From: Halieaceae bacterium
Lineage (GTDB): Bacteria; Pseudomonadota; Gammaproteobacteria; Pseudomonadales; Halieaceae
Assembly: GCA_030066555.1 (NCBI GenBank)
Contig: JASJBK010000003.1
Location: forward strand, 6,287-70,286
DNA length: 64,000 nucleotides
Direction of reading: 5' to 3'
The translations under genes and the position numbers were made by a program. Below are positions 4,888 through 61,449 of this stretch, piece by piece (the first letter of the stretch is position 1; each line of letters opens with the position of its first letter). Below the pieces are notes generated by a model. That model searched no databases. It saw only the letters and a list, made by a program, of their open reading frames with translations, and was not told the origin of the DNA.

Positions 4888-5066
4888 GGGAATCCTGGTG
4901 TATTCGCCAGAGAACAAGTTCTCTACCCGATATTTACACCCCAGGGGGTTGCTCGCTGCTGATGATGTGCAGGTCCGCACGACGGGAAGCCTAATTCAGC
5001 ACAGTGACCACCGCCTTGAACCATCGGGTTCAAGGGCATCGTTCTCAGCGGTACTCCGGGTTTTCC
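4888..5066 (+). ncRNA. ssrS: 6S RNA (SsrS)
   Basis: Compared by hand with E. coli 6S RNA. Shared blocks are CCGAUAUUU, GAAGCCU-AA and CCUUGAACCA-GGGUUCAAGGG. The 5-prime GGGAAUCCUGG..GAGAAC pairs with the 3-prime GUUCUC..CCGGGUUUUCC to form the closing stem. A -10 box TATACT (4875-4880) lies 7 nt upstream of the proposed 5-prime end. The ends are +/- a few nt. Confidence 0.85.
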
Positions 5067-52964: not shown

Positions 52965-53780
52965 CTAGCTCTGGCACTCCCGACAGTACACCGTACTGCG
53001 CTGGCCCAGCCGGGTTTCGGTGAGCTGGGTCCCGCAGCGGGGGCAGGGTTCCCCACCGTGATCGTAGACGTTGAGTTGCTGGCGGAAGTAACCCGGCTTG
53101 CCATCACCCCCGACAAAGTCCCGCAGGGTGGTACCTCCCTGTTCCACCGCAGCCGCCAGCACCTGGCGAATCGCCTCCACCAGCAGTTCAAAGCGCGGCT
53201 TCGACACCCGCCCGGCGGCACGCCCCGGCCGCAGGCCTGACAGGAACAGGGCCTCATTGGCGTAGATATTGCCCACACCCACCACCACCTTGCTGTCCAT
53301 GATGAAGGCCTTGAGCGGCACCTTGCGCCCCCGCGAGCGACGGAACAGGTACTCCGCCGTGAACTCCGGGCCCAGCGGCTCCGGCCCCAACTCCGACAGC
53401 AGGAAGTGTGCGTGTGGGTCCTCCAGGCTCCAGAGCATGCAGCCGAAGCGGCGTGGGTCGTTGTAGCGAAGGATCTTGCCGGACTCGAGCACAATATCCA
53501 CATGATCGTGCTTCTGGGGCTCTTCCGGCTTTGTCAGCACCCGCAGCGACCCTGACATGCCGAGGTGAGAGATCAGTGTTCCTGCATCTGTGCGGAACAG
53601 TAAGTACTTACCTCTGCGCTCGATGTCGCGGATCGTCGCCCCAGGCAGGAAACGCGTCAGCTCCTCGGGGATCGGCCAGCGCAGTCGCCGGTCGCGGACC
53701 TCGATCGACTGCACCGCCTCACCTTTAGCATGCGGCAGTATTCCACGCCGGGTGGTCTCAACTTCGGGTAATTCGGGCAT
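52965..53780 (-). CDS. mutM: Formamidopyrimidine-DNA glycosylase
   Basis: ORF 52965..53840. Start moved to ATG 53780 ([14 protein letters not shown], giving the catalytic N-terminal Pro). C-terminal zinc finger CPRCGTQL...YCRECQ. Confidence 0.93.
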
Positions 53781-53907
53781 ATCTTCGTCGATCCTGCAGG
53801 CATCGTGCTCAGATGCCAATACTTCGCTATTCCAAGGCATTACAATCCTGATAGCGTAACTTCGCGTAACTTGAGCCTATCCTTCCAGTATTTGGTGCCA
53901 ACGTGTC

Positions 53908-54027
53908 GGGATCGCACTCCCGCGGGGTGTTTCCCGACTCGCTAAAAGCGTGACGTCCATGTCTCGCTCGACGCCGGCCGTCCATGGCCGGCGACGGTCG
54001 GGAAACACCCCGCGGAAGCCCGATCCC
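53908..54027 (+). repeat. Structured repeat element, copy 1: 58-nt conserved core (53939-53996) on a copy-specific 19+7 bp stem
   Basis: 53920-53938 pairs perfectly with 53997-54015, and 53908-14 pairs with 54021-27. The core is shared with the copies at 54188-54245 (inverted) and 61317-61374. Confidence 0.85.
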
Positions 54028-54160
54028 TTGTTTAGCGCCACCACTGCAGGTCAATCAGCGGCTGGTTGTCGGCTGGAGGCGCCTAGGTTGAAGAAGCATA
54101 CCGCGATGCGACCTCCATTTCGGCAATCTTGTCCCCTGCTACTGGCAAAGTTTCAGGGAG

Positions 54161-54272
54161 CATGGCCCTCTCACCAGGTTTGCGGACCGTCGCAGGCCAG
54201 GGACGGCCTGCGTCGAGCGAGACATGGACGTCACGCTTTTAGCGCGTCCGCAAACCTGGTGAGAGGGTCATG
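54161..54272 (-). repeat. Structured repeat element, copy 2 (inverted orientation): core 54188-54245 on a 27-bp copy-specific stem
   Basis: 54161-54187 pairs with 54246-54272 (26 Watson-Crick pairs plus 1 G-T). The reverse complement of the core differs from copy 1 at 4 of 58 positions, two of which form a compensatory pair. Confidence 0.85.
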
Positions 54273-54331
54273 ATCCCGAGCAGCTGGCACAAAAGCACAC
54301 CAGCCAGACTACCTGGATATTTCGATGAGGC

Positions 54332-54357
54332 ACAAAAAAGCCCGCCGTAGCGGGCTT
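54332..54357 (-). terminator. Rho-independent terminator downstream of rpmG
   Basis: The minus strand reads AAGCCCGC-TACG-GCGGGCTT followed by TTTTG. It lies 19 nt after the rpmG stop. Confidence 0.75.
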
Positions 54358-54375
54358 CGAGACGCAAGTAAGTGC

Positions 54376-54531
54376 TTACTTGATCTTGGATTCCTTGTAC
54401 ATGACGTGCTTGCGAACCACCGGATCGTACTTCTTCATTTCCATCTTGTCCGGCGTGTTGCGCTTGTTCTTGTCGGTCGTGTAGTAGTGGCCGGTGCCTG
54501 CGGAGGATACCAGTTTGATTTTCTCTCTCAT
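54376..54531 (-). CDS. rpmG: 50S ribosomal protein L33
   Basis: Below the ORF-track cut-off. Hand translation gives [51 protein letters not shown] (51 aa). Confidence 0.95.
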
Positions 54532-60568: not shown

Positions 60569-61192
60569 ATGTCTCCGCGTAAAACTCAACGGCGTCAACA
60601 GATTCTCGAAGCGCTGGCGCAGATGCTGGAAGCGAGTCCGGGTGAGCGTATTACTACCGCACGGCTGGCCCGGCAGGTCGGTGTATCTGAAGCGGCCCTG
60701 TACCGGCACTTCCCCAGCAAGTCAAAGATGTTCGAAGGCCTGATCGAGTTCATCGAGGAAACCCTGTTCAGCCGCATCAACATCATTCTCGCCGAGGAGA
60801 GCGCTGCGGCGGCACGCTGTGAAAAGATGCTGTCACTGTTGCTGGCTTTCACCGAGCGCAACCCCGGCATTACCCGCATACTCACCGGCGACGCCCTGGC
60901 CGGCGAAACCGAGCGCCTGCACGCCCGTGTGGCACAGCTGTTTGATCGCTTTGAAACCCAGCTCAAGCAGGTCCTGCGGGAAGCCGAAATGCGCGAGGGC
61001 ATTCGCCCAGTGCTGACTATCAACGCCGCCGCCAACCTGCTGCTGGCCGCTGCTGAAGGGCGCATCTCCCAGTATGTGCGCAGCGGCTTCCAGCGCTCGC
61101 CCACCGAGGCCTGGCCCGACCAGTGGCAGCTGCTGATCTCCGACTTTTTCCGCCCTGCACTGCCGGCCACGGCACAAGTCACCCAGGCCTGA
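60569..61192 (+). CDS. slmA: Nucleoid occlusion factor SlmA (TetR family)
   Basis: 207-aa ORF ([60 protein letters not shown]). Confidence 0.85.
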
Positions 61193-61310
61193 ATTTCTCC
61201 TTAGGTCGGGCACGAGCTGGGTCTGCTCCTTCCCGCACTACCCGCCACGGTACAAGTCACCCAGGCCTGAATTTCTCCGTAGGTCGGACGCAAGCTGGGT
61301 TTATTTCTCC
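61151..61310. repeat. 78-bp tandem duplication (about 2 units) containing the last ~13 codons and stop codon of slmA
   Basis: GCCACGG(C/T)ACAAGTCACCCAGGCCTGAATTTCTCC... occurs at 61166 and again at 61244. There are 5 mismatches over the central 57 nt by eye. TGA occurs at 61190-92 and is duplicated at 61268-70. Confidence 0.85.
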
Positions 61311-61397
61311 CCGGACACGCTAAAAGCTTGACGTCCATGTCTCGCTCGGCGCCGGCCGTCCATGGCCGGCGACGGTCCGTGGAGAAATAAACCCAGC
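61294..61397 (+). repeat. Structured repeat element, copy 3: core 61317-61374 on a 24-bp copy-specific stem
   Basis: 61293-61316 pairs with 61375-61398 with one mismatch. The core differs from copy 1 at 3 of 58 positions. Confidence 0.85.
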
Positions 61398-61449
61398 TCG
61401 CGCCCTATATCGGCACAAAGCTCACTGGTTTTAAGGGAGTTGTGTGGGG

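Follow-up and report, generated by a model that had tools for sequence, protein, structure and literature searches.

The DNA analyzed here, a stretch of 64,000 nucleotides from a Halieaceae bacterium (contig JASJBK010000003.1, hereafter the window), raises the question of what occupies the intergenic space between mutM and rpmG. mutM starts with MPELPEVE at 53780 and rpmG lies at 54376..54531, which leaves a spacer of 595 bp (53781-54375). In this spacer the original prediction had placed two opposite-facing hairpin elements, each with a conserved core on a long stem, and this arrangement was reproduced from the gene starts and a repeat search, together with all coordinates and counts given for both elements. 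The inverted-repeat search returned arms of 31 nt with 90% complementarity for copy 1 (53908-53938 / 53997-54027), arms of 32 nt with 94% complementarity for copy 2 (54156-54187 / 54246-54277), and the cores of the two copies as an inverted pair of 78 nt (90%). When core 1 (53939-53996) is aligned with the reverse complement of core 2 (54188-54245), 4 of 58 positions differ, and two of these differences form the compensatory C:G to A:T double change within an 8-bp hairpin that had been described before. A third core is present in the window at 61318-61374; a 27-mer of the core, matched there at 61326-61352, occurs three times in the window against an expectation of 0.00 (100 shuffles). Compared with dinucleotide shuffles, each of the three modules is far more stably folded (z-scores of -9.2 to -12.0), with minimum free energies (MFE) of -85 to -96 kcal/mol for the hairpins.

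There is little doubt that the window modules are members of the TwoAYGGAY RNA family (Rfam RF01731), with its architecture of two hairpins on a long stem P1. An Rfam 15 scan at gathering thresholds (43 bits for RF01731) placed copies 1 (46.6 bits) and 3 (47.8 bits) above the cut-off, in both cases along the full-length model (positions 1-168). Copy 2 scored 35.1 bits, below the cut-off, with E = 6.7e-4 in a search of 481 nt, and shows the same architecture at full length. Both loops of copies 1 and 3 read AUGGAC, and copy 2 has AGGGAC in its first and AUGGAC in its second loop; all are AYGGAY-like. The motif has been described in human gut, gamma-Proteobacteria and Clostridiales (Weinberg et al., 2010; Genome Biol 11:R31), already with a very long, nearly perfect closing stem P1, and the respective alignment contains several copies with repeated flanks from one genome, that of Psychromonas ingrahamii. 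The "copy-specific arms" of the original prediction are this P1 closing helix. Its description of a conserved center on a variable, near-perfect stem was right, and this striking feature is the published definition of the family. The core had also been held to belong to no known family; since it matches the already described RF01731, an outcome named beforehand as refuting, the claim of novelty fails.

The Halieaceae modules are a new, divergent, G+C-rich set of members of this known family. They share with it the two AYGGAY-type hairpins closed by a long, near-perfect and sequence-variable P1, the gamma-proteobacterial host and the occurrence of several copies per genome, but they are G+C-rich and mostly fall below the Rfam cut-off. 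Fixed doublets, a bias toward gene 3' ends and a constant P1 of ~31 bp are Halieaceae features absent from the published TwoAYGGAY descriptions covered. No function has been assigned to TwoAYGGAY since 2010 in the literature covered, with bioRxiv 10.64898/2026.09.22.753630 lying outside this coverage. The modules and their parts are located in the window as follows.

53901..54034, minus strand: TwoAYGGAY module copy 1, co-oriented with mutM and ~120 nt upstream of it (RF01731, 46.6 bits; MFE -96.2 kcal/mol, z = -11.5)
53908..53938, minus strand: 3' arm of P1, copy 1 (inverted repeat and fold)
53946..53969, minus strand: hairpin 2, copy 1, GAGCG-A-GAC-AUGGAC-GUC-A-CGCUU, near-invariant in the family, with conserved G·U pairs
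53972..53993, minus strand: hairpin 1, copy 1, G+C-rich stem of 8 bp; loop AUGGAC (RNA strand)
53997..54027, minus strand: 5' arm of P1, copy 1 (inverted repeat and fold)
54035..54153, no strand: doublet linker, holding the block CGCGGTATGCTT on the minus strand (alignment of relatives)
54154..54279, plus strand: TwoAYGGAY module copy 2 (RF01731, 35.1 bits; MFE -92.9 kcal/mol, z = -12.0)
54157..54187, plus strand: 5' arm of P1, copy 2, pairing with 54246-54276 (inverted repeat and fold)
54191..54212, plus strand: hairpin 1, copy 2, CGCAGGCC-AGGGAC-GGCCUGCG
54215..54238, plus strand: hairpin 2, copy 2, with loop AUGGAC
54246..54276, plus strand: 3' arm of P1, copy 2 (inverted repeat and fold)
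61192..61255, minus strand: solo type-A P1 arm remnant, without a core (nhmmer with the type-A model)
61279..61412, minus strand: TwoAYGGAY module copy 3, with type A arms (RF01731, 47.8 bits; type-A hidden Markov model, 140 bits)

Relatives were collected through exact matches to the core 20-mer TGACGTCCATGTCTCGCTCG in a collection of species-representative genomes. This gave 34 stretches, nearly all from Halieaceae metagenome-assembled genomes (MAGs), plus Parahaliea mediterranea and one Cellvibrionales MAG, and a hidden Markov model of the core found 61 cores in the fetched loci and the window. Most arms fall into two types. Type A, found in 27 modules with window copy 3 among them, reads GAGGGYGUGAGCUGGG-[7 variable bp]-CYUCCCCGGAC on the 5' side of the RNA strand, with the complement on the 3' side, and type B (22 modules) reads GGAGCGCGUGCGGUGCCUGGGGYCCUUCCGGGAC. 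P1 is ~31 bp long whatever the arm type, the private arms of copies 1 and 2 included, and ends in an A·G or G·G mismatch; the 3' flanks of the modules read CCUACGGAGC or GGCUUCAG. In copy 1 the pairing of 53908-53938 with 53997-54027 comprises 19 perfect bp, an internal loop and then 7 bp, and in copy 2 the helix has one G·U on the plus strand and one G·A mismatch near its base, its inner stretch being 27 bp with a single G-T (54161-87 with 54246-72). The claim that arms are unique to each copy breaks down across the family, given that copy 3 carries a type A arm and that orthologous arms exist for copies 1 and 2. Nor do the arms resemble phages or plasmids, as had been considered: searches of plasmid and phage collections gave no similarity for the arms, and the core had only chance-level matches in phages (E = 0.4).

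Covariation was assessed in an alignment of 51 modules with 50 pairs, with 500 shuffles as control. Paired cells amounted to 97.2%, compared with 78.3% in the shuffles and 35-48% when partners were slid, and 31 of the 50 pairs showed changes on both sides, values that none of the 500 shuffles reached. In P1 alone, 26 of 34 pairs had changed on both sides, and in the hypervariable part of type A (helix positions 12-18) all four Watson-Crick pairs occur, with 89-100% of copies paired. Hairpin 1, whose loop in Halieaceae is often the 5-nt AGGAC, covaries at its stem base with 100% of cells paired, while hairpin 2 is an almost invariant, short stem of 5+3 bp. Pairing support in many aligned copies thus bears out the earlier claim that selection acts on pairing in a single-stranded nucleic acid. 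Judging from these alignments, the sequence of P1 drifts freely while its pairing and length are kept, and the hairpin region is constrained in sequence. With conserved types and a fixed length of ~31 bp, the arms as aligned are neither free-form nor "programmable". Among the three explanations originally offered, a structured RNA family with a programmable long stem came closest: the structured RNA stands and the programmable stem does not. A G+C-rich insertion of ~15 nt (CGCGCGGCGUCCGCG-like) forming a small extra hairpin was also observed in hairpin 1 of some modules (L014 6302-6371, L029 7769-7840, L030 4764-4833, L031 6107-6176 and L044 3349-3419, where L numbers denote fetched loci).

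Which strand is functional could be examined in several ways. In all of 57 modules, the strand carrying AYGGAY gives the more stable fold, with a mean of -102.1 vs. -88.7 kcal/mol for the complement (Wilcoxon p = 5e-11), and it is also the more stable one in all three window copies; for copy 1, the opposite strand reaches -85.9 kcal/mol compared with -96.2 for the minus strand. P1 helices contain 152 G·U pairs vs. 3 A·C mismatches, an A·C being a G·U on the other strand, and in a metagenome set of 95 modules the respective numbers are 103 and 7. A replication-strand bias cannot explain this signal, because a doublet has one module on each DNA strand. The selected molecule would hence be the AYGGAY single strand, most probably as RNA, with a single-stranded DNA (ssDNA) hairpin as the alternative.

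The loops of this strand point to a candidate partner. GGA is present in 101 of 102 loops (51 modules) while the neighboring bases vary, and the hairpin context C-A(N)GGAN-G is close to the CsrA/RsmE binding consensus. The CsrA consensus obtained by systematic evolution of ligands by exponential enrichment (SELEX) is RUACARGGAUGU, with GGA within a hairpin loop, and the common hairpin variant GACAGGGAUGUC matches its ACARGGAUGU part exactly. Rfam groups RF01731 with the Csr/Rsm clan (CL00106), and Gardner and Eldai (2015) proposed that members of the family bind CsrA. With the Csr/Rsm sponges (CsrB, CsrC, RsmX/Y/Z) the modules share the clan, GGA in hairpin loops and the C-A(N)GGAN-G context, and the two adjacent hairpins of a module would suit one CsrA dimer, a binding that is only predicted. 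In contrast to the sponges, a TwoAYGGAY module has only two GGA sites, set on a double-stranded stalk of 31 bp, and occurs in tens of dispersed copies without a promoter or terminator of its own. A tblastn search with Escherichia coli CsrA and Pseudomonas aeruginosa RsmA gave no csrA match in the window and the fetched loci, which together cover only ~0.4 Mb of Halieaceae DNA, and the literature on CsrA in Cellvibrionales yielded nothing useful.

The modules (~130 nt) usually occur as an inverted doublet of ~330 bp composed of one type A and one type B module. The relative orientation was identical in all 22 inverted doublets, with the RNA 5' ends facing each other, and the cores are 124-128 nt apart in 15 of them; in the window pair the distance is 191 nt. 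The doublet linkers (~58 nt) are weakly conserved and contain weak motifs only. At least 22 modules in 12 loci were found in the MAG CBDDJJ01 (4.8 Mb), and at least 10 in one complete chromosome of 4.8 Mb; such per-genome counts are lower bounds, as only loci with exact 20-mer seeds were fetched. The mean core distance was 0.109 within and 0.121 between genomes, in a set biased by the 20-mer used for finding; concerted evolution of cores within genomes, considered on this basis, was set aside for want of a clear signal.

Beyond Halieaceae, a pattern derived from the Rfam consensus matched contigs of marine, soil, sludge and gut metagenomes, at least 120 in all, with many matches at contig ends, and the modules found there likewise consist of a long helix and two hairpins. 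In these loci (L165-L284), the P1 helices of TwoAYGGAY-like modules measure 27-34 bp, the arm motif GGGGC.GGCCCUUUCCGGGAC of Halieaceae type B recurs in some of them, and ~40% have a short P1 (13 bp or less). A degenerate two-loop pattern was also searched in viral contigs; only one of the 120 loci returned (L080) had both loops closed by stems and this line was dropped.

With regard to genomic context, all modules are intergenic. A simple GC3-based gene call assigned 17 of 28 units to convergent, 11 to tandem and none to divergent gene pairs, the background in the same loci being 17% convergent and 25% divergent. The convergent excess (p = 2e-7) and the lack of divergent placement (p = 4e-4) are both optimistic values, as some loci are orthologous. 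Gaps between modules and stop codons are often 9-60 nt, and copy 3 lies 36 nt downstream of a same-strand open reading frame (ORF) of 222 aa, between convergent genes. No recurring partner protein was found near modules when ORFs of at least 90-100 aa from 34 Halieaceae and 120 metagenome loci were clustered; the clusters that did recur were only orthologous neighborhoods and spurious ORFs crossing the repeat. No sigma-70-like promoter was found at the window modules or in the linker. A consensus scan for a hairpin followed by a U-tract found no terminator at the window modules, and also missed rpmG's own terminator.

Taken together, these features suggest a REP/BIME-like, co-transcribed structured RNA repeat at gene 3' ends that probably binds a dimeric protein, and we would place the probability of this joint reading, drawn from sequence comparison, at roughly 60%. 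Because the modules lack a promoter or terminator of their own, they would be made as part of neighboring transcripts by read-through, and owing to the doublet layout a transcript from either side would contain one sense module. On the rigid double-stranded stalk, the two identical hairpins would offer their GGA loops to a dimeric protein that binds RNA, an arrangement that would suit a homodimer. Function at the RNA level is probable in itself. CsrA/RsmA is the best candidate partner because the loops fit the CsrA consensus, and we name it tentatively. In addition, the long perfect helix may protect or process the transcript 3' end, as an RNase III-type substrate. Perfect double-stranded RNA of 31 bp is expected to serve as an RNase III substrate and to block 3' exonucleases.

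Several points weigh against this reading. Copy 2 presents AYGGAY on the strand antisense to its neighbors radC, rpmB, rpmG and mutM, and the promoter scan gave no promoter-like site for it. In every doublet, transcripts entering from the left or the right alike first cross a module that is antisense to them, and each flanking gene has such an antisense module as its closest one. The dispersed, multi-copy presence/absence pattern is also expected of a selfish DNA repeat, and G·T pairs are tolerated in ssDNA hairpins too. Only 2 of ~30 further Halieaceae modules reach the Rfam cut-off, which puts the subfamily at the edge of the model. Finally, a September 2026 bioRxiv preprint treats TwoAYGGAY at length and does so without the word CsrA. 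Any functional model is constrained by the Halieaceae copies, with their constant helix of ~31 bp, clear strand, invariant GGA loops, obligate inverted doublets, position at gene 3' ends and lack of a linked protein gene. Culturable relatives such as P. mediterranea TN14-10 (locus L032) carry modules and allow direct study.

As to the history of the locus, ten orthologous rpmG-mutM loci with spacers of 41-494 nt were found through the L33 protein, which many relatives share unchanged. In a tree of the flanking genes (~82-84% identity), the window groups with L035, L041 and L044, next to a group of L036/L040, L042 and L038. The window, L044 and L042 carry copy 1, with homologous arms whose differences are compensated; this copy is absent from L035/L041 and L036/L040, and in L038 only a 10-bp outer hairpin is kept at its site. 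Copy 2 occurs in the window and L038 only, and its 122 nt, 27 bp of arms among them, are either found whole or missing altogether. Orthologous copies persist with compensatory changes across ~17% divergence of the flanking genes. Comparisons of filled and empty sites and of doublet flanks revealed no direct target-site duplication. Since both copies occur in both major clades with homologous arms, the simplest history would be that of an old doublet whose inner palindrome was lost repeatedly. The block CGCGGTATGCTT of the linker (minus strand, 54098-54112) is kept in 7 of 7 ingroup genomes in the spacer alignment, with or without modules, and may be part of a mutM promoter.

The main rival, which we regard as unlikely, is that the modules are a selfish REP/REPIN- or MITE-like DNA repeat acting as ssDNA, the RNA structure being incidental. 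The twin hairpins would then be recognized by a transposase with its gene elsewhere in the genome, either a dimeric HUH/Y1 (RAYT-like) enzyme or another one, and the long palindrome would be the mobile form. A multi-copy, dispersed repeat without a linked gene, in obligate inverted doublets of fixed orientation and with differing presence at orthologous sites, is in line with this, and so is the strand asymmetry, which also fits ssDNA hairpins. The outer ends read GCTCCGTAGGCCGGG..., i.e., GTAG followed by GCCGG, which we take to resemble the 5' end of E. coli REP. Like REP/BIME/REPIN sequences, the modules are extragenic palindromes that are commonly arranged as inverted doublets, enriched at gene 3' ends and variably present between relatives, without target duplication; the GTAG-like outer end is found in the modules only on type-A arms. 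The lack of a visible target-site duplication is as expected for IS200/IS605-type chemistry and differs from MITEs. Two type-A modules of the MAG JAZBOY01 (L016 740-796 and L021 4722-4777) share the hypervariable P1 segment UAGACCCCC although their flanks, linkers and type-B partners differ, a pattern that hints at copying or gene conversion of single modules.

However, no RAYT-like or other transposase was detected in 44 Halieaceae and 120 metagenome loci, which represent a small part of each genome, and a tblastn search with an approximate RAYT query gave a best E of 3.1, which is not significant. One metagenome locus considered as a transposase candidate (L174) encodes a hydrolase-like ORF. 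The retention of orthologous copies with compensatory changes despite the divergence of their flanks, as well as loops that keep a motif of the RNA-protein type, also speaks against a purely selfish DNA repeat. Furthermore, the module of ~130 nt with its two-hairpin core is far larger than the classical REP hairpin of 20-40 nt, and it occurs in tens rather than hundreds of copies. The Correia/NEMIS elements of Neisseria and the ERIC/IRU elements of enterobacteria are comparable as intergenic palindromes of 100-150 nt that give long RNA hairpins when co-transcribed. Effects on mRNA stability have been reported for both groups, and RNase III cleavage for Correia. Their ends are conserved and their center is variable, though, the reverse of the conserved center and variable stem seen here, and Correia elements make a TA target duplication; no duplication was seen at the TwoAYGGAY modules.

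Self-spreading and use by the host may also be combined, although we rate this rather low: the modules would be a self-spreading cassette of 3' untranslated regions, a REPIN-like repeat used by the host at the RNA level through RNase III-like release and CsrA titration. A transcript crossing a doublet would yield one sense module, an RNase III-like cut of the 31-bp helix would free a two-hairpin RNA of ~90 nt, and this RNA would clamp one CsrA/RsmA dimer, so that the summed read-through would set the free CsrA pool. If true, this would give an RNA motif orphaned since 2010 a function, and a dispersed repeat would become a new means of wiring up a global regulator.

A pure 3'-end element, in which the hairpin acts as a transcription barrier or as a 3' exonuclease block stabilizing the upstream mRNA with no protein partner, appears improbable. 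The strong bias toward gene 3' ends, with no unit between divergent genes, the very stable hairpins (-85 to -96 kcal/mol) and a doublet that offers a strong hairpin in both reading directions would all be accounted for. Yet a stabilizer needs neither twin near-invariant hairpins with GGA in nearly every loop nor a fixed helix of 31 bp or a G·U asymmetry. Of the terminator/stabilizer module originally suggested, the terminator is not supported, since, unlike in intrinsic terminators, no U-tract follows the module hairpins and the terminator scan was empty at the modules, whereas a stabilizing or processing role at 3' ends is compatible with the observed bias. rpmG, moreover, already has an intrinsic terminator of its own at about 54337-54358 (GCCCGC-tacg-GCGGGC followed by a T-run, minus strand), which is kept in all relatives.

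Stand-alone small RNA genes, i.e., a divergent pair of Csr/Rsm-type sponges transcribed outward from the linker, are very improbable. The RNA 5' ends that face each other in 22 of 22 doublets, the GGA loops and the placement in clan CL00106 would suit such a pair, but the linker has no sigma-70-like promoter, is short (~58 nt) and weakly conserved, and no terminator follows the modules. Tens of copies per genome placed directly after stop codons (9-60 nt) are also unlike Csr/Rsm genes.

The notion of a core that enters palindromes, or generates them from an inverted copy of its flank, or of a stem that serves as a programmable guide, is largely refuted: core-less relatives do keep the outermost 7-10 bp at the copy-1 site, as a short hairpin in L038, and a solo arm and a 78-nt duplication lie beside copy 3, but the arms are homologous among paralogues (types A and B) and orthologues and so travel with the core, at the copy-2 site genomes have either both arms and core or neither, the arms have no phage or plasmid matches, and the tree favors an old insertion with later loss, a shared history of the doublet that therefore argues against an element building its stem from the flank. 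Insertion into palindromes that already existed is likewise disfavored as a general rule.

The duplication beside copy 3 is a head-to-tail repeat at 61149-61304 with units that are 83% identical. It covers the last 44 nt of a TetR/SlmA-like ORF (60569..61192, plus strand) and a type-A P1 arm, the solo arm remnant sits within its first unit, and the differences between the units fall mostly in the arm part.

As regards annotation, the long palindromes should be treated as a known RNA/repeat family and not as a new mobile element. ORFs of ~100-170 aa cross the palindromic modules (in the window at 53950-54273 on the plus strand, with similar ORFs in other loci); from the sequence comparison they are spurious and cluster through the repeat alone, and indels between orthologues argue against genes. 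Elsewhere in the window, a 6S (SsrS) RNA was identified at 4889-5066 on the plus strand (Rfam RF00013, 86 bits vs. a cut-off of 46.4).

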